From Catajapyx aquilonaris (lineage: Eukaryota), in assembly GCA_000934665.2 (NCBI GenBank), contig KZ538233.1:1-64000 (forward strand): DNA of 64,000 nt. The letters run 5' to 3'. The first letter of the stretch is position 1, and every line of letters begins with the position of its first letter. The notes under the pieces are model-generated. The model saw nothing but the letters and a program-made list of their open reading frames with translations, ran no database searches and had not been told where the DNA came from. The position numbers and the translations under genes were made by a program. Shown in pieces: positions 1,496 to 60,538 of the stretch.

Positions 1496-4400
1496 GTAAG
1501 TACCGCTTACTTTCTCGTCCTGTGCGTCCTTTATTGTGTCGGAAGTGCGTGCCGTGATGGACCGATTCATCTCCATCACTTTCACCTCGTGGAAACATAT
1601 GCACATCGCACATGCTCGCGTTCCACATTCAAAAAAACATCGCTGGGAATTTCTGGCGCTAAATTCTCTCTGGATGAGCAATAATATTTAACGACTAATT
1701 GCTTCTTATAACGGAAAGGTTACGGTAGTTGCCTCAATTTATGTCACGGACTACCAGTATACTAGTAAACTTGTACCGCGAATCCAGCAGCCCTTGTCCA
1801 TAATAACTGCCCTGTACATACTGGCAAGATGTGTTATTGACGAGTTTTTCCGCCCATTAAAAAAACCGCAGCTAACCTATATGTCACTCTATCAGCCTAT
1901 TTGTGCACAGAATAATGTCCCAAGGTCGGGACCTGCCCCGCCCGAGGCTTCGTCACACCTTGAGGGAATCGAAAGTTAGACTTCTTGTTCTGGTCTTCCC
2001 GTGGTGTGCGGTCCACTTTATTACATATATTTTTTTACATATATAAATATGACAAGTGCGATGCCACTCCTCCGATTGTTGTCCTTCCCATAGACAAGAC
2101 CTTCCGATTCTCGTGCATCGCTCTTCCTTTCACTTACGCCACTATTGTGTTTGATCCTTGTTAATCATGAGTCGTGACGTTTCACTGATTTCACCAGAGG
2201 CCTCATCATTTATTCGCACAATATTTTTTTTGGCCCCTTTCCCCACACGCATGTCTCAGAAATAAAACACACATAAGTCAAATATTATGACGAATAAACA
2301 AATGGAAAGATGTCAGCCAGCGGCTAATTCTCGGGGGGGTCTCCATTTTGGATCGGGGACACTGACTTTCTTCAGGGAGCCAAGGTTCTTGTCATTCATA
2401 GCCCAACACCAGCCTTATTTTCCGCCTATCATGCAAATGGCATACTTTCAGTGTCATTCTTAATGAAGTAATCAGCAATTACGTCAATGTGCTGTAATTT
2501 CCCTACACGTCCAAACAGGTGATAGATGACTCCAAAATTATACGCAACAATGGCGACTAAACCTTGGCCATTCCAGGTAGTGACTTCATACTATTGTAAT
2601 TACATTCAAGGGGTGAGCCTGCAAATAGAGTTGACAAATTTGGCCTCATTTGTCATTTTTAAAGCACAACAATTAGTTGCTTCTTTGCCCTACTTAATAG
2701 CAGATCATTCCACCTGCAGATTGTCATGCAGTTGGCAGCGGAATTTGTCTGAGAATCCGAAACCGGTTGGGCCTACTGACCTCAATTGTACCCCCCCACT
2801 TCTTATTTTGGAGTGTTTACAGAGGTGACAAGTCCGTACGGTGCTAGGACGCATTGGATGCGTGCAGACAACATAGAAAGGGAAAACGTTCCTTACGCAA
2901 TTCTCGATATATTGGATCTTATCGTGATCATCCAGGATTGTGTCGGCGTGGCAGAGGAATTTTCCCATGCTCTGAGGTAATACAGTTAGTCACGACTTTA
3001 GTACAGGGCCATACGGATTTCCCGGGGCTAATCGTGGGATGTCAAAAAATATATAGCACACTTCAAAAACCGTTATCCAAAAAAAAAACTTTCACGCACC
3101 AACAAAATACACAATGTGAGGTAACTTCTTCCGTCCCGGAAATAATTTTTTTTGGAAGAGAGAAATCCGTAGAATAAACAATGCAGCGGAAGTCAGATTT
3201 TTTTTTTTGGTCGGATTTTTGTGAATCTTACTGCAGATATGGGCTGCGAGGCTGCATCGGAAGGGTTCCAAAGGTCACCCATCGCTAGTGCGTGGAAGTC
3301 TTGCTGGGCAACTTTCACCGCGAGTCTTTTTGATTAGGGAAGTGGAGGAGGAGTAGGCCAGAAAAATATTGGGGATGAAAATTTTCGGAGGGGCGGTGGC
3401 CTCTTGTCGTATATATATATATAGAGAACATATCGGTCTTAAATTAGGCAGCCTGACAACAATTACGGCGAATCAGTGCTTTCTAATAGAGCCAGCGGGA
3501 GGGAAAATGTCAATGTGCAATTAGCCTATTCAGAAAGTGTGATTTCACTCGTAATTTTCTCCACCAATAAAACCACGTTTCATTTTTATTAGCATGTTTC
3601 CAAAAATATTCTGAATAGAAATCAGATTGTTTAATTAAATTTTTTTTTTNGTTCAAAGTCACACTTTCTCTGGAGGGGCCCGGCCACTTGAACTGATGAC
3701 CTCAAAAGGCTGTCCAAATCAAATAGGTGCTGGTCCTTCATAAAACGAGCTCATCACTAGGACCACACGTGTAAAAAAAAAAAAATGATGGAAACTACTG
3801 ATACTCGAGAGAAAGTGAGTTTTCAATTTTTGAAAAAAAAAAGAAAAAGAAAAAAACCCTTTGTTGTTGTTGCTGCTGCTGTTGTTGTTGTTGTGGGTTA
3901 TACCATCTTGTGAATGGAGGTGAAAGGCCAGTTCCGAAACGTAACAGATTCGCCATTTTGATAATCACATTGTAGGATTATACCAATGTTATAATACTCG
4001 AGTTGGCTTAACGGCCGTTAACGGTCATACGCCCTTATGATACGAATCAAATCGTGTGAAGAGGATCAACAAAAACAATTTGCACTACTTCTATCCACAT
4101 AGTATGTAAAGCAAGTAGTTACTATCAGATCAATCAAACCCGCAACCCACCCTTTCACTTTCCTCGCCATTTATCCCAAATCCCTGTCCGACTTGGCACA
4201 CAATATATAGTCGGACAATAAAAATCCGAAAAATTATAGCCCAACAATTCGGCCCCATAAAAATGGCCTCAGACACCTTATGGCTGATGTTCGAAAAATT
4301 CCACATAAATTTACCGCACTTGGCATTTTAATTGCTGGAAATGTATAAAAATAATAAGTTGCTATAGGGGGAGTGTCTGGACCGTGTTTCTTCGTCTTCT

Positions 4401-7400
4401 TCCTTCCCAAAGCTGAAGCAGGTGCCCTTTGAGAAATCGAGGCCAACGGGATAGTCTACCGACTGGCCAAGGCTGCGAAATACTGCCACTTTTGGGTTGC
4501 AGCAACAAATTTTTTTTTTTTGTGCACGCTCACCCCCTCAAGGCAAGTCAGGTCAAAGGGTTGAAGACGTCATTTCAAATGTCTTTATTGGACATATCCG
4601 CCTGTTGCAACCAGTGTGTGGGACGATATTGTACCACCCAGTTTAAAATCCGGGTCACGAAAAAAAATAACCCCTGAAAAATTCGCCGAATGGCATCAAT
4701 GTTGCAATTAATTGGACATACGTCAGCAATTTCACCTAAATTTTTTCTCTCTCCAGATGTCCAACGCCTCGTGGCAACATTCCTTTTAAACTTTTCATTG
4801 GCAACCAAGTGACCTCACTTTCACCGCTCGTCCGAAAGAACCGCATTCAATTAGCTTCTTTTGCCACTGTAGGAAATGACATTAACCGTATATACAGTAG
4901 TTTAAAAAAATGCCGCCTCGATTCACCTTTATCCGTTTAAATTTCCGGCTCATAAAACTCTCCGAGGTGAACTTGTACCGCCCCATAAAAGTTGGGAACA
5001 TCGCTGTCAGCATTGTATGCATGACGATACAAGATGCTGACAATTAGTATAAGAGCGCACTTTGCTAAAAAAACATCCATCATCTAAGTGGCCAATTTAC
5101 ACCCAATTCTCCGACAAGCACGAATGGTCCATGGTCACACCTCGGGGCTATTCCTGACCTTTCTGTTCTCCCCTCCTTGGGACTTGACTCTATGTTGCGG
5201 TGGTTCAGTTCTCAAAAAATTCTTCGGCACTTTATTGTAAGACAAGGGAAGGTCTTGTTGGTTACCCCGCTGGTTGAAAACATTTTTCTGTGCACAAATA
5301 AGCAGATTGACCTTCCATTGACCTTTGTTGCCCCCCCCGAGTTTAGTTTGTAATAAATGAACCGAACCGCCCCAACGCAACTGAGTGTTTTGTCCCGTCT
5401 TCCCATCTTCCCTAGGGTCCCGGCCAGCTTCTTCCACTTCTTCGGCGGTCAGCAGAGACTCCCAGCAGCAGTTGCTGGTGCGGTACCTCCTGAGCAGGCT
5501 AATCACTCCTCCTGCTACCCTCCGTCCACCGTCCCCCCTGGCACCCACCACACCAATTCCTCCAACCCAAAGGAAGCTGCCTCTACCACCACCAGTACCC
5601 AGAGCCAGGAAGATCACCCCACCCAGGCTGTACCTCCAACACAACCAGAAGCAGCCGGAACCAGAGTACGACGACCAAGACCAAGATGACCACTACCAGG
5701 AGTACGACTATGACGAAGACAGGCCACCAGATGAGGAAGAGGAGGAAGACAGTGGTGGAGGACACCACCAACCGGATGACGACCCCAGTTCGACCCCCAG
5801 TATATGGGACAAAATATGGGTTCGGGACAGGAACAGACCCAGGCATTTGCCTAGGACGTTACCAGGGCTGAACCGGTTGTTGGGGGAGATACAGCAGGAG
5901 TTGGACGCAAATGCGAGCAGGATCCAACACCATCAGGGTGACGAAAGGAAGCTGCAGGAAGAGGAAGTGTGGAGGTGGAGGGGTGGTTGGGAGGAGGATG
6001 AGGCAGTGCTGCAGGGCAATAGTTGGGGTGTCCCACGGGGCAGGGACCACGACAGGGATCCTCAGAGTGGACATGAGACTCAGGATGCCTACCATGTGGT
6101 GTTCCCTCCATTCAGTTTCGACGACAATTCAGGTACCAAATAGCAGAGTTGGGAGTGAACCACTGCTTTAGGACACACCCTTAACCTCTTGCCCTTTGGC
6201 CAAGGTCTTAAGCAGTGGCCTAATTATACACATTGCATTCCGACCCACTTTATAAAGGGCGGGGTCCGCACTATTTCACACTATTTTCCAAGCGCAAAAT
6301 GTCACGTTCATGGTAGCAGTTTAATAATTGTCCTTGAATCGTATATTTGGCTGCAAGTCAAACAAAACAACATCACTGCCAATTACCGCCCATGAATATC
6401 CAAAATGGCAGGCTGACATTTCCGAGTTTGATTGGCATGGTGTGCGGAAGTATAATGATGACAGGGATATGCATTGACCTCACCTTTAAGATCAGGGTCA
6501 TTTTTATTACGCAACTTTGAAAAAAACAAACGTGGCATTTAGGACCGAAAATATGAACCCGACTGGCAAGTTGGGTTGCATAACTGCCAGGAGACACTGG
6601 GTGTGTCGTCTAAGAATACAGCTAAAAAGAGGGCCACCTTGGGCCAGTCGCAGCAAGGGCGTGGTGACCTCACCCCAGGTCCAATACAAGGTCACTGTCA
6701 CATTTTCCCCCAAAATTCACACAAAATTTTTCGTAATCATTACGTAAGGGATTGCAGTAATTAAGGCGAGCAGGATATAAAAGTAAAACGGGATCGGTTC
6801 CAGTAGCTAGTCGCAAGTCACCAACAAAAAGCAGTGCATGATTGGTGATGTTTCTCAAGAATCCTGCTGTGTGCAGATTTTACTGCTCAGCAAGGTTTCC
6901 CTTTCTCTTGCAGTCTTGGCCGGTCTTGGCCAATATTCAAGTTCCGCGTGGTGTTGGATGATGATGATGAGGAATACCGCACCATCAAGCTGGACTGTTC
7001 CTCACCTTGGCATTTACAAACAATAAAATATATATTTCCTCCAAATAAATATATTCGCGATTTTTAAAAATATTAAATTGCCCCACCAAATGTCACTGCA
7101 GCCAAATGACCCGCAGCCAATTGTCCGGCAGCCATCACTGTCCTTTCACCGTCTGGATCTTCCACAAAATGGGCTCATATATTTTCATCCTTCAGATGCA
7201 CAACATGATTTATGATGTACGATTGAACAAAATAGTCTTCCTGGAGAGTGAGGTCTTTTCATATGGCTGCAGAAGATGCCTTTTGGTTTTACGAACAAGG
7301 TCCTGGCAGGGAGGAATTCGAAGGTGTGCAAAAATGGTCGTCCTTGAGAAGTTGCTCTTCTCGAGCCTTGGATTGCAACGGGGTGAAAGCGAGAACGGAC

Positions 7401-10020
7401 AGGTTTTCTAAGGGGTCGGTACCGGTACACTCTGTGACAAGCGCATAGAATTAAAAAAACCCTCTGGGCCAAAAAATAGGCCCTATAATGGTATTTGCGT
7501 GCTGAAAATTGATATCACCGTGGCCGATCGGTATGTCGGCAATGAAAGTGTGCAATTATCCCGTTTGCTAGAATTTTTATGCTTGAAAATTTTCGTGAGT
7601 GACATAATCCCCCTCTAGGTGCTGGGTGTACATACTGACTTGCTACCTTGAATTGCAGGTTGCGCCAACTGCATCGACGATGGTTCCAGTTCGGCGGCGG
7701 CCAAATGGACCATGCCCTTCGTCAAACTAGGAGACAAGCGATACTACCTGGGGATCTTCTTTAAGGTGGGAAATATCGAAATGTCAGAGGTCACCAGGTG
7801 GCCCTCTCGCTTTCACTTGTACAGATCTTAGTCGGTCGGGGGCCGCATTCCAAATATATTCGCACACACATTTTTTACTAAATTCGCAATGACCTTACGC
7901 ACCCGGAAAAGCCCTGTTGGGTATGGCCCCGGACATAACCTGCAATCGGCAGGCAATAATTCCACCTACCTGCAAGCAACGGAATTTGTCCTTCGTATAT
8001 ACTAGTCTGCAATTAACTCACAATTTTGTGCGTTATCCTACACAGAAAAATGTGCCCACATTATTCTGTAAAGGACAACACAAAAAAATTGTTTGTAGCA
8101 ATTAGCGATTTCACCATTGTACAATCATCATTATTTCGTAGTGCACGCCTCTTTTCACTCTTTTTTATTGTTTTGATGATTACGTTTTAGTCGCACTTTC
8201 GGGCCCTGTTTCCTATACCGCACCTCTCAGGCGCCGTTTCAAATCAAATGATGTCAAAATGGCATTGTTGCGACCGCACCTATCTTCCCCGTCACACCTG
8301 GCTTTGAATGCATGCTGCAATTTTTCACCGTTGCACCAACACACTGACATAAAAGTCTGCCTAAATTTATTGACGCTATAGGACAGATAAAATATCCTGT
8401 TCGCAAGGCACTAATGTTCGGTGTCGGTGGCAATTCGGGTCACTTAAAATCGTTATCGGACGGAGATCCAAGTGCTGTCAAGATTTTACCGCCCAGATCA
8501 AACGCATTTTGAATATCTAATTGTTGGGGGCAAGAATCACAGTCCGACGCATTTTCTGCTCAGATTAATGGCCAATATTTCGCACCATATAAATTCCTGG
8601 GTTATAAGTAAACGACTTGCGTAACAGTCTGGGACAGGAAAGTTAAACATTGTAGCCAAAACAAATTAGGAACAATATTGCGTGTCTTTCATGGAACAAA
8701 GTGGAATGCAAAGTAACCTAAGGCTTTACGGAGCCAAAAGCACCCAAGGCAGGTTGAACTAGTTAGAATGGAAATCCAATCACTCAGTTACGTAGTACAT
8801 GTCGGATCACTTTCATTACCTCCCCTCAAGTGTCACTAATGTCCTACCAAATATTGCGAAACAGAAATGCGCATATGTGCATATGTAGTTGCCTAACATG
8901 CGCCTGCTTGCTTGCACCTGCACGCTTGGTTTATTGGTTACTGGACGCTACCACCAGATGCCTCTCTTCCTCCTCTTCCCACGCTGCTTTGCTGGTAACG
9001 GTTTTTCCACTGGCGGTTGGACCATGGTATAAAGCGGCTATGTCTTTCCAGGCAAATTGGCATCGCGCCCAACAGTTCTGCCGATATCATAGTCTAGAGC
9101 TGGCCAGCATAGACAACGCAGAGACGAACAAGCTTCTCCAGGACCATGTAACCGAGCAAGGTACTCCTCGTTGGCGGTACCTCCTACTTCCTTGCCTATC
9201 CCATCCTTCTAACTCGGGCAGATAGGCGCGGATAGACGCGATAGTATGGCGCCTCAGAGACGGAAACGGGGCCTGACGATAGTGCAGGGGAACTGTTGAA
9301 TGACAAGTAGGTCGTTTTGCAGGCCAACTGGTTCAAAGGAGCTCAGTACTGCCGTTACCACGGGATGCACCTGGCTAGCGTAGAGAGCCAAGAAGAGAAT
9401 GAAAGGCTCAACAAATACATTCAAGACTTCGGTAAGTAGATGTGTATACAAGCCCAGCAGCTATTTGCACGAAAAGAAAGTGGACAAATATCGCCATAGA
9501 GGCATCAAACTAATTGATCGCTTCGGAAGGTAGGTTTCCTTTTACTTTGAAGCATGGGTCATGTACTGCATGGTATTGCCCAACCTTATGTCGAAACAGA
9601 TGTCATAAAGCTAGGCATGCGGCTTCAACAACCTCCGCGTCAAGAAAGTCATCCTTACTTTTTTTTAAAGCATGTTTACACTCATTGTCAGTTTTAACAA
9701 CGCCCCATCCAATATTAACACACGAACCAAAAAAGAGAGACATAAATCCTATTCTAACTCAACGCTCTTGTCCAGGGCTTGGTCACGAGCACTTCTGGAC
9801 GTCGGGAACCGATCTGGCCGAGGAAGGCAGCTTCTTCTGGATGGCCACCGGCCGACCTTTGACCTACACCAACTGGAACGCAGGAGAACCCAACAACTTC
9901 CGTTACGAGAACGGCGAGGAAGAGAACTGCCTGGAACTATGGAACCGAGATGGGAAGGGCCTCAAATGGAACGACTCGCCGTGTTCCTTCGAGACATTCT
10001 TCATCTGCGAAATCGTCTAA
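1387..10020 (+). CDS. Secreted single-domain C-type lectin (EPN/WND, mannose-type), conserved insect-type CTL (resembles Drosophila CG9134 from memory)
   Basis: Exons 1387-1495, [5416-6132], 7659-7765, (9052-9160 or 9323-9431), 9776-10020. All GT-AG with matching phases. 428 aa with exon 2, 189 aa without. CTLD: KRYYLGIFFK-ANWFKGAQYCRYHGMHLAS...FWTSGTD...WNAGEPNN...ENCLEL...KWNDSPC...FICE. Confidence 0.92.
3861..3893. repeat. (GTT)n/(GCT)n compound microsatellite next to an A-rich tract
   Basis: ttgttgttgttgctgctgctgttgttgttgttg seen directly. Confidence 0.8.
5416..6132 (+). CDS. C-type lectin exon 2, Pro-rich/acidic low-complexity cassette (239 codons)
   Basis: Acceptor tcttccctag|G, donor TCAG|gtacc, phase 1-1, open in the frame of ORF 5385-6143, joins exon 3 in frame. 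Confidence 0.7.
7659..7765 (+). CDS. C-type lectin exon 3
   Basis: aattgcag|GT...AAG|gtggg, encodes CANCIDDGSSSAAAKWTMPFVKLGDKRYYLGIFFK (start of the CTLD). Confidence 0.9.
8193..9285 (+). promoter_or_regulatory. Long-range intronic complementary pair (8193-8237 with 9246-9285) flanking exon 4A, candidate docking/selector splicing structure
   Basis: 8199-8213 pairs with 9262-9276 (15 contiguous bp, 2 G-U). 8224-8237 pairs with 9246-9259 (13 of 14, 1 G-U). 8193-8197 pairs with 9281-9285. All colinear and antiparallel. Confidence 0.65.
9052..9160 (+). CDS. C-type lectin mutually exclusive exon 4A
   Basis: tttccag|GCAAATTGG...CAAG|gtact, 109 nt, ANWHRAQQFCRYHSLELASIDNAETNKLLQDHVTEQ, paralogous to 4B. 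Confidence 0.85.
9323..9431 (+). CDS. C-type lectin mutually exclusive exon 4B
   Basis: ttttgcag|GCCAACTGG...TTCG|gtaagt, 109 nt, ANWFKGAQYCRYHGMHLASVESQEENERLNKYIQDF. Confidence 0.9.
9776..10020 (+). CDS. C-type lectin terminal coding exon (EPN and WND motifs)
   Basis: tgtccag|GG, GLGHEHFWTSGTDLAEEGSFFWMATGRPLTYTNWNAGEPNNFRYENGEEENCLELWNRDGKGLKWNDSPCSFETFFICEIV*. AATAAA at ~10180 and ~10676-10696. Confidence 0.95.
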
Positions 10021-12261
10021 CCCCCTTGTGTGAAAACCAGATCCTTTCCCTATGGACGTGTTTGTCCACCGTGATGCCCGCAGACACATGGACTGCCACA
10101 GTGCACCTTGATGGACTCGCGAATATTTGGACACTGGTATAGATCTTACACCGAACAAGAAGAAGAAAGGAACGCTCAAAATAAATTTGATATAAGTTAC
10201 AAGTTCCTTTCTTCCCAGCTTGACAACGCAAACTAGTCTCGCAGAATTTGACAGGGAGCCAGTTAGCTATCTACAGAGTCTCAACCGCACCCTTTCTCGA
10301 AAAACTGCTGGCAAAATGTCTTTGGTAGTTGTGTAGATTCTGAAGGACGCACTTTGAGAGGGGCATTAAAGTAAGGTAACTGATTGGGTGGCAGGAATCG
10401 AACCCAATGGTTCCAAAATTCGTTATGGCGCTGTTGTATAGTAAACCATCCATGGAAGTCAGCGCTAGTGTCACTTTCCTTACACTAACAGTCTCTTGAG
10501 TAGTCATCAGCTGTTGTTATTCATCGACGTATACGTTTCACGTTGACACGTACAAATTCAGCAGTGCTTCATTATATTTCCTTCGCCATGTGTATGTGCA
10601 TGTGACAAACACCGTGCGTGACAACCGTTACGGACCTCTTTTCACTTTATACTGTAGATTACGCTATCTGTACATAATAAACAGTGTACAAATAAAACCA
10701 CGTTTATTGAGGCACAAACTGTGCTTGAGGTCGACTTTCCCCAACTTCCTTCCTTCCTTTCCACAACAATTGAAAGCAAGGACAAAGGAGCAACGTACTT
10801 CGGAGGGAGGTTGGAACCACCCAGCTTCCTCATAAATCACGAGAGGCATTGTTTACAACGAAATATCGATGTCATTGTCAGGTTTTCCTTCCTCTACCTT
10901 TCTCCACACCCGATTTTTCTTCTCCAGATTTCCCATGCTCGTTACCCAAATTATTCGCTCTCAAGGTCTCGACGTGGTTGCTCCAGCACAAATGTTTGTG
11001 TAATGTCATAGGTATAGACCATTACGTCCGATATGCAAATACGCGCTTTTTGATCTTTAGCAGAAATAATCCGCGGTGATGTCATATGGCAAGTTGCTGA
11101 GGAAGCAAGTACCGGACGACCTTGCCATACAGATCTACCAATATTTACACGTCCGGAACAACAACGAGAACAAAAACAGAGGCGCGGACACCCCTTTTTA
11201 TGTTTAGATCCGAAACCGGTGCCACATGCATAGGCTAACTTTCTACTACCCATAAACAGGTTCTACTACTTGTCAGAGAACAAGTGATTCCAGGAATTTC
11301 CTCCCAAGACTTTTCTTCCTAGTTCTCCCCCCCATAGATGCATCGGTGTCCATATTTGCGAGTCCGGAAACCACCCCGGATTCCCGCACCCTGTGGAGGA
11401 CCCGAACGTCAATAACTCCTGAGGGAGTGAATGGGACAGCTTTCTCCTTGTGCTGCCTACCTGCAATGACCCACAATTTGACATTTAGAGAGGTAACCTC
11501 ACACTATATGATCAATTCTGATCTAGCCTTTACATGTGTTCCACCCCAGTTCCGATGCCAGTTACTTATTTCATAACTGAAAAACAGAGGCGACAAAATG
11601 AGGCTCGTCGTAAAACAACACTTTTACCGGCGGTTATGGGCCAGGAGAAAGTTGGGTCGACCCAGTGAGACAAAAGACAAAAGTGCGAGGAATGCACTGG
11701 GATTTCATGAAAATATACTCAGGTTACGACACCTGATGTAATCCCAGTTACAAGTAGACTTGAACAAATTAATTAAAATGGTATAAAATTCGCATGGGTA
11801 TATCACGTAAGGTTTACGCAACTTGATGATTCGTGACCTATTTTTAATTAGCATTTTTTTTTGTACCCACCCTAGATGTTGTAGGAAGGGAAAGGCTCAG
11901 GTGAAAGTGGATCTAACTCGTAGGGAAAAATGGTGGGTGTTCACATTTGTCACGATTCCTATCGGCCATGGCCTTGGCGCCAATTCCCTCACTAATGGAC
12001 GTAACTACAGTAGTGAAGGAAAAAAAAAAATGCGGTGCTGGTTATTTCATCGTGAGGACAGGGTGCTACTCCTTTTTAGGGGCTAAAGGTCGAGGTCAAT
12101 TCGGGTGGGCTAGTGGTCAGCGCTTTCCTCCTACACCTACCACCAACTTCCACATTCCAGTCTGAGATTTCTCTTTCGGCTACCCCCAGCTTTTACCTCC
12201 AAAGCCGGTTCCTACTCGCCATTTTGAGTCTACCAAGGTACCTTACTCTTTCCTCACCATA

Positions 12262-13805: not shown

Positions 13806-14038
13806 ACTAGTTGTTTAAAATTCAGCACAGTAGGTTTCAAATACCTCCTTCTTACCTCTTCAAGTCAAACCTTGAATTAATGCATATAAAAGCCTATCAT
13901 CAAATGATTTCCATCAGTACTGCTGTACTGCTAGAAATCACTTGATGATAGGCTTTTATATGCATTAATTCAAGGTTTGACTTGAAGAGGTAAGAAGGAG
14001 GTATTTGAAAATACTGCGATGAATTTTAAACGACTAGT
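13806..14038. repeat. Long near-perfect inverted repeat (hairpin, ~115-nt arms, 4-nt loop)
   Basis: 13835-13903 is the exact reverse complement of 13942-14010 (69 bp). Pairing continues inward to loop tgct (13921-13924) and outward to ACTAGT ends with few mismatches. Confidence 0.95.

Positions 14039-16351: not shown

Positions 16352-60538
<44,187 letters not shown>

Follow-up and report, generated by a model that had tools for sequence, protein, structure and literature searches.

The first 64,000 nt of the Catajapyx aquilonaris contig KZ538233.1 (positions 1-64,000, here called the window; all coordinates count from its start) carry on the + strand a C-type lectin gene of the secreted type, orthologous to triforce (tfc, CG9134) of Drosophila. 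The first third of its lectin domain appears to be encoded by one of two tandem homologous exons, 4A or 4B, separated by an intron of 162 nt. A segment of this intron is complementary to a segment of the intron preceding 4A, and outside low-complexity sequence no long-range pairing in the window is as strong as the resulting duplex. The arms of this duplex are located where an upstream docking site and the selector of a distal exon should be. We infer that the duplex affects the choice between 4A and 4B and, with a probability of about one half, that it forms a bridge similar to stem I of srp and to the pairing of Dscam exon 6, looping out 4A and favouring 4B.

The full pairing involves 8193-8291 and 9215-9285 and is made of eight colinear helices with 57 bp, of which 51 are Watson-Crick and six are G-U. 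The core comprises the helices 8193-8197 with 9281-9285 (5 bp), 8199-8213 with 9262-9276 (15 bp including two G-U) and 8224-8237 with 9246-9259 (13/14 bp, one of them G-U, interrupted by a C.C mismatch at 8228/9255), and has a duplex energy of -52.1 kcal/mol. Four further colinear helices extend it: 8264-8272 with 9237-9245, 8274-8277 with 9228-9231, 8279-8285 with 9220-9226 and 8288-8291 with 9215-9218. Over its whole length the duplex contains two 1x1 mismatches, the C.C mentioned above and an A.C at 8278/9227, and four asymmetric loops (1 vs 4, 10 vs 2, 26 vs 0 and 1 vs 5 nt). An earlier note on this DNA had described the three core helices, whose coordinates and lengths are exact, as well as an alternative register, which does exist (8227-8240 with 9263-9276, 14 nt, 93%); the extent that it gave to the pairing was, however, too small.

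All eight helices are present in the minimum-free-energy (MFE) structure of 7659-9800 (2142 nt), where the core helices pair with mean probabilities of 0.81, 0.94, 0.95 and 0.97 and those of the extension with 0.71, 0.995, 0.99 and 0.46. Extra helices toward the 4B acceptor, which arise in a two-strand calculation, have a probability near zero in the same fold. The selector region is weakly self-paired in the local fold of 9150-9335 (z = -0.93). The docking arm begins 428 nt past the exon 3 donor and lies 761-859 nt upstream of the 4A acceptor, while the selector arm is placed 55-125 nt downstream of the 4A donor. From the end of the selector to the 4B acceptor there are 37 nt, which keeps the arm clear of the likely branch-point region.

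Comparison with shuffled sequence, a check that the earlier note had proposed, supports the duplex. None of 200 dinucleotide shuffles of 9161-9322 reaches the duplex energy of the real intron, which is -112.2 against a shuffle mean of -94.7 (standard deviation 4.6, best -110.6), and the pairing-alignment score of 58 is reached by two shuffles in 1000. In a thermodynamic tile test, 3030 overlapping 40-nt tiles were each paired with the region 300-1500 nt upstream of the tile. The real arm gives -52.5, compared with a mean of -26.4 (standard deviation 5.45) for the 3030 tiles and of -32.1 (5.4) for the 517 tiles of similar G+C. No more than three tiles match or exceed the real arm, and all are of low complexity, belonging to a GCN/CAG repeat at 21401-21460 and to purine-rich sequence at 5961-6000. 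The locus therefore contains an intronic element outside the exon cluster that is complementary, beyond chance, to an element beside a variable exon.

By their structure, 4A and 4B qualify in every respect as a mutually exclusive pair. The two exons are equal in length (109 nt) and phase (0 to 1), and both match positions 4-36 of Pfam Lectin_C, 4A with 23.4 bits and 4B with 21.5 bits. The splice forms 3-4A-5 and 3-4B-5 keep the frame open to the natural stop, whereas 3-4A-4B-5 encounters a premature stop at nt 54 of 4B, and 3-5, with neither alternative exon, at nt 85 of exon 5. The exons are identical at 56/109 nucleotides, or at 19, 25 and 11 of 36 sites in codon positions 1, 2 and 3, with saturation at synonymous sites, as long protein-coding constraint on both copies would produce. 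The pair appears to have arisen by an old tandem duplication. We also infer that 4A is spliced in Catajapyx aquilonaris. Exon 3 ends with ...YYLGIFFK and the donor AAG/GTGGGA. The 4A acceptor, ...GTCTTTCCAG/G, is good and its donor, AAG/GTACTC, is weak; exon 4B has an acceptor AG at 9321-9322 and a strong donor, TCG/GTAAGT, that equals the consensus. The positions of the exons and of the pairing segments are collected in the table.

Table. Exons of the tfc-like gene and intronic pairing segments considered at the locus
Feature	Position	Strand	Basis or outcome
Exon 3, constitutive	7659..7765	+	frame; tblastn of Ischnura, Cloeon, Drosophila, Schistocerca and other homologs; splice-site strings
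Upstream "docking" arm, intron 3	8193..8291 (core 8193-8237)	+	helix list, MFE structure, pair probabilities
Candidate weak competitor before 4A, tggtataaagcgg	9025..9037	+	not supported
Exon 4A, A-type alternative, 109 nt	9052..9160	+	translation, Pfam, codon pattern, grouping with A-type exons, frame tests
Downstream "selector" arm, 4A-4B intron	9215..9285 (core 9246-9285)	+	duplex energy, helix list, tile test, MFE structure
Candidate downstream pairing looping out 4B	9287..9306 with 9685-9706	+	in MFE structure (helices of 4, 7 and 6 bp), not significant
Exon 4B, B-type, 109 nt	9323..9431	+	translation, Pfam, homologs, tblastn, frame tests
Last coding exon (exon 5), rest of lectin domain and stop codon	9776..10020	+	translation, Pfam Lectin_C, homologs

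The four exons fall in the 3' half of the gene. The last exon shares 84-92% identity with insect proteins named tfc or triforce by several sources and 90% with Drosophila melanogaster P0021, while the B-type exon is 71% identical to that of Drosophila. Exons 3, 4 and 5 align in tblastn with the proteins of Drosophila, Schistocerca, Phlebotomus and Ischnura, so that the domain, the high identity and the common exon structure around the domain are those of a tfc/CG9134-type lectin. No entry identical to the lectin of the window was found in the protein collection. Both sugar-binding motifs, EPN and WND, are encoded in the shared last exon. Drosophila CG9134 (tfc) is named as a C-type lectin in a pigmentation study (Dembeck et al. 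2015, PMC4416719).

Further upstream on the + strand, an open frame at 5385-6143 encodes proline- and acid-rich low-complexity sequence. Within it, a QQQLLVRYLLSRL segment is similar to the N-terminal regions (EQELL.KYLL.RLL) of three transcript-like contigs, L005, L013 and L015, and a PSIWD motif has a similar counterpart in the Phaedon protein P0004. The frame probably belongs to the lectin gene as one of its upstream exons.

The A/B exon pair is old and is conserved, in the same order, in another species. A metagenome scan with the last exon yielded 80 loci, 27 of them with an exon 4-like match, and one alone, L014, with two such matches. In L014 the A-like exon occupies 328-436, the B-like exon 689-797 and the last exon 1709-1953, and both alternative exons are 109 nt long with AG/GT borders. 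Its A exon is identical in 33/36 residues to an exon of two predicted proteins of the mayfly Cloeon dipterum. A single copy of exon 4 was seen in nine other genomic loci, all with 1 kb or more of sequence before the exon 4 match. The tandem is seen only in the window and in L014, and A-type exons otherwise only in mayfly and damselfly proteins and in some transcripts: the damselfly Ischnura elegans P0274, annotated as "isoform X2", has an A-type exon joined to the last exon, and another is present in the spliced transcript-like contig L003. The contigs L003 and L026 were considered as isoforms of one species, which is ruled out by their identity of 77-87%; they come from different species. No closer relative than L014 was found in the metagenome, genome and viral collections; the genome and viral contig scans with exon 5 returned distant (<=72%) bacterial or giant-virus-like lectin-domain matches only and no arthropod locus.

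An equivalent of exon 4 is present in 116 of the 120 listed homologs of the last exon, and all 116, which are insect proteins, score higher with 4B than with 4A; the remaining four are without the exon 4 region. In tblastn, the proteins of Drosophila, Schistocerca and Phlebotomus prefer 4B over 4A, while the Ischnura protein prefers 4A (61 vs 47 bits). In a tree of the 36-residue exons, which has few columns and moderate support, and in which a mis-extracted row labelled Dmel was disregarded, 4A clusters with the exons of Ischnura, L014-A and Cloeon (support 80/79), and this A-type group joins crustacean-like sequences (92/93). Exon 4B and the L014 B exon are placed among all other insects. 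The branch of 4A is the longest among the exon sequences (0.52).

A search of representative proteins with 4A alone gave 188 proteins at E <= 0.001, with a best single-stretch identity of 50-66%; these best matches proved to be exons of orthologs in other arthropods and not close relatives of the window 4A. Searches with a read-through of 4A added nothing: with 44 residues, the protein search gave two candidates, none of which scored, and with 50 residues, the metagenome scan gave 200 pattern matches, none of which was confirmed. The sequences P0190, P0204, P0243, L005, L023, L032, L034 and L036 have a single exon 4, the second half of which (..SAEEQ..LQ.HI..) is closer to the A-type than to the B-type. 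They are probably orthologs from non-insect arthropods, so that the A-type may be ancestral and the B-type an innovation of insects.

The L014 introns contain pairings of another kind. A 17-bp stem (438-454 with 561-577, 94%) in the middle intron covers the A-exon donor; 561-576 is also complementary to 1152-1167 in the intron after the B exon (16 nt, 81%), and a perfect 12-bp local stem, 572-583 with 625-636, overlaps the 561-577 segment. These stems could represent a different, local way of choosing between the A and B exons; tile and fold tests are not significant, and the fold of the middle intron is not significantly better than its shuffles (z = -1.64). In the window, a 7-bp hairpin (9159-9165 with 9176-9182, AGGUACU/GGUACCU) lies over the weak 4A donor in the global MFE structure and parallels the donor-covering stem of L014; the local fold of 9150-9335 is not above its shuffles.

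Control of mutually exclusive exons by RNA structure is well known as a mechanism. Ivanov and Pervouchine 2018 (PMC6071210) list Dscam, MRP, Mhc, srp and 14-3-3zeta and argue, in the passages used here, for a wider spread. The locus is most similar to Drosophila srp, which has a tandem of two exons, 4.1 and 4.2. As described by Yue et al. 2016 (PMC4691838) in their account of stem I, an element in the intron after constitutive exon 3 pairs with the intron between 4.1 and 4.2, so that the proximal exon is looped out and 4.2 is used, as demonstrated by disruptive and compensatory mutations. According to the same account, a second pairing of srp, located downstream, leads to inclusion of the proximal exon, and all four srp elements show conservation across Drosophila. 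In the window, however, the downstream pairing is not above shuffles, the duplex is much longer (57 bp over ~100 nt) and the gene encodes a lectin and not a GATA factor.

In Dscam exon 6, as summarized in the relevant part of PMC6071210, the docking site likewise precedes the cluster, the selector immediately precedes the exon that is chosen, and the exons in between are looped out. There, 48 selectors compete for a single docking site and the unselected exons are held back by a repressor, unlike the window with its one selector and no supported competitor. The genes 14-3-3zeta, Mhc and MRP also have tandem homologous exons with a choice tied to intronic RNA pairing, as proposed here, but their docking sites are given in the same source as downstream of the cluster, a polarity opposite to that of the window. 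Dscam exon 6 and srp stem I are therefore the closest architectures, and of the precedents named in the earlier note (Dscam1, 14-3-3zeta and Mhc) the latter two are less close. The tandem-duplication model of Ivanov and Pervouchine, as outlined in that paper, also has a duplicated exon pair flanked by complementary intronic segments; it predicts duplicated selectors and residual similarity of the flanks, whereas the window has one selector. Residual similarity between the flanks of 4A and 4B was considered and rejected, as 80/300 and 278/300 shuffles are as good. Drosophila tfc/CG9134 itself, the ortholog of the window gene, differs in that its protein P0021 carries the B-type only.

By analogy with srp and Dscam exon 6, the events would be as follows. 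Once the intron between 4A and 4B is transcribed, its selector segment would pair with the docking arm in intron 3. The interrupted duplex would enclose 4A together with both its splice sites in a loop of ~920 nt and leave an effective distance of only ~470 nt between the exon 3 donor (7766) and the 4B acceptor. Exon 3 would then be joined to 4B and 4A skipped. Use of 4A would be limited to cases in which the duplex does not form, e.g. through fast co-transcriptional splicing, helicases or binding proteins, while transcripts with both exons or neither, being out of frame, would be removed or non-functional. The 4B form would be expected as the main one and the 4A form as dependent on the absence of the duplex. 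More tentatively, and with rather more doubt than for the bridge itself, it might be hypothesized that triforce carries an ancient A/B switch of the first third of its lectin domain, set here by a single, very strong docking-selector duplex across ~1 kb. On this broader hypothesis the A-type, which is similar to the exon of crustacean-like relatives, would be retained in mayflies, damselflies and Catajapyx aquilonaris, and it appears absent from annotated fly, beetle, moth, bug and ant proteins.

The arms might have been copies of a dispersed repeat, as the earlier note recognized, and this is not the case within the window, where a second copy of either arm was not found. Extended inverted DNA identity between the arms was not found either. 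The best local inverted alignment is 24 nt long, which also rules out an extended inverted duplication of 4B plus its intron. The locus is thus not a transposon-derived inverted repeat of the type of a miniature inverted-repeat transposable element (MITE) or foldback as far as the 64 kb go. No coding potential was detected over the arms on either strand, and the open reading frames that overlap them have no Pfam match. A search of 7000-10500 against Rfam gave no match at the arms and sub-threshold microRNA-like matches only at 8023-8085. The latter is a hairpin in intron 3, which matches microRNA precursors on both strands with no more than 27.6 bits where the gathering score is 70, and the match is probably due to chance. 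The combination of few mismatches within the helices with several large asymmetric loops seems unlike the neutral decay of an inverted repeat, and contrasts with the contiguous 97% foldback at 13835-14010.

This foldback forms part of a near-perfect structure at 13806-14038, with 86-nt arms that are 97% complementary, a 4-nt loop and additional outer arms of 27 nt. It is the top scorer of the crude pairing score among the window segments and is probably a small foldback or MITE-like element.

Several observations weigh against the bridge. The crude pairing-alignment score of at least 58 is found in 17/372 real segments of the window and so is, taken alone, not rare in this genome. The sense strand is favoured over the antisense by a small margin, with -52.1 vs -49.9 kcal/mol for the core and -89.7 vs -80.5 kcal/mol for 8160-8300 with 9205-9322. 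The whole duplex has six G-U pairs against one A.C, which is suggestive only (one-sided binomial ~0.06), so that the argument from G-U pairs for an RNA-level structure, made in the earlier note, turns out to be weak. Two or more competing pairings, as in a competition between exons, were not found. The element tggtataaagcgg that the same note had named as a weak competing partner is present before 4A, but its pairing does not exceed chance: the docking region against 8900-9051 gives -49.9 kcal/mol, and 99/300 shuffles are as good. For 9286-9322 against the downstream intron the energy is -25.4 kcal/mol (49/300 shuffles as good), and for the selector arm against the same intron 80/300 shuffles are as good. 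The locus is thus left with one docking site and one selector instead of a competition, which leaves the choice of 4A, and the skipping of 4B after 4A has been used, unexplained. In L014, the middle intron pairs with the available upstream and downstream introns no better than its shuffles (-29.0 vs a mean of -28.1, and -27.9 vs -27.3). That contig starts only 327 nt upstream of its A exon, whereas the docking arm of the window begins 859 nt upstream of 4A. Finally, a close A-type relative of the window 4A was not found in the protein collections. The earlier reading of the locus as a switch between two lectin versions is partly supported, namely by the exon-pair structure, the coding constraint on both exons, the L014 tandem and the exceptional duplex, and not by the competing partner or the G-U argument.

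Many of these points would be accommodated by a duplex that is real but incidental, i.e. a relic of an old inverted duplication or of two old repeat insertions, or a lucky match, with the choice set by splice-site strength and protein factors. The crude score shared with other segments, the presence in the genome of inverted repeats such as 13806-14038, the nearly equal antisense energy, the missing competitors and the lack of a comparable long-range pairing in the available part of L014 all agree with it, as does the difference between the weak donor of 4A and the consensus donor of 4B. It is, however, rather doubtful, since of the 3030 tiles the strongest pairing that is not of low complexity falls exactly into the 162-nt intron between the duplicated exons, the arms have neither another copy in the window nor extended DNA identity, and their helices, with two mismatches only beside large asymmetric loops, do not look like a neutrally decaying repeat.

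Two other explanations keep a role for the duplex and change its purpose. If 4A were no longer a used coding exon, the duplex and the weak donor might silence it constitutively and so keep an exon that is decaying or harmful out of the mRNA, in line with the B-type in all 116 listed homologs that contain exon 4, the missing close relative of 4A and its long branch, the hairpin over its donor, and pair probabilities above 0.9, which suggest that the duplex would form near-constantly. This is improbable, as 4A has kept its frame open, its length and phase exact and its two splice sites in place, retains the core residues of Lectin_C with a score slightly above that of 4B, is far better conserved at second than at third codon positions, and belongs to a type that is used in other species (P0274 and L003). 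Flanking inverted repeats are also known to promote back-splicing of circular RNAs, and the strong, stable pairing, with arms on both sides of 4A at fitting distances, might drive the formation of a 109-nt circle, with any effect on 4A/4B choice as a by-product. A single-exon circle of 109 nt is near the small end of the usual range, the 4A donor is weak, and the geometry is fully explained by a loop-out model that has experimental precedent for tandem alternative exons; circle formation is accordingly the least probable of the explanations, falling slightly behind the silencer.

Elsewhere in the window, long frames with GCN/CAG runs (poly-Ala/Gln-like) occupy the minus strand at 19565-21756, especially at 21401-21480 and 20061-20120, and give the strongest self-complementary tiles of the window. 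The adjoining minus-strand frames at 16624-19590 look like exons of a large gene. Single N bases are present at 3650 and 63165.

RNA-structure control of mutually exclusive exons is proven for a handful of insect genes only, and, judged by titles and abstracts, no description of mutually exclusive C-type lectin splicing or of CG9134 splicing was found in the literature. A lectin would plausibly be a new gene family for the mechanism. Nothing in the looping out of 4A would be surprising in principle, and the functional link between the duplex and splicing remains a proposal. The locus is a compact and clean candidate: its two alternative exons are separated by 162 nt, a single strong duplex spans the first of them, and no competitor is supported. 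If the broader hypothesis of an A/B switch holds, it would be the first case of RNA-structure-controlled mutually exclusive splicing in a lectin and a minimal, one-selector form of the Dscam and srp mechanism. In the highly conserved tfc lectin, the N-terminal third of the lectin domain comes in a second version, which is old. Since EPN and WND are encoded in the shared last exon, the switch would alter a surface other than the sugar site, and would bear on what this poorly understood lectin binds.

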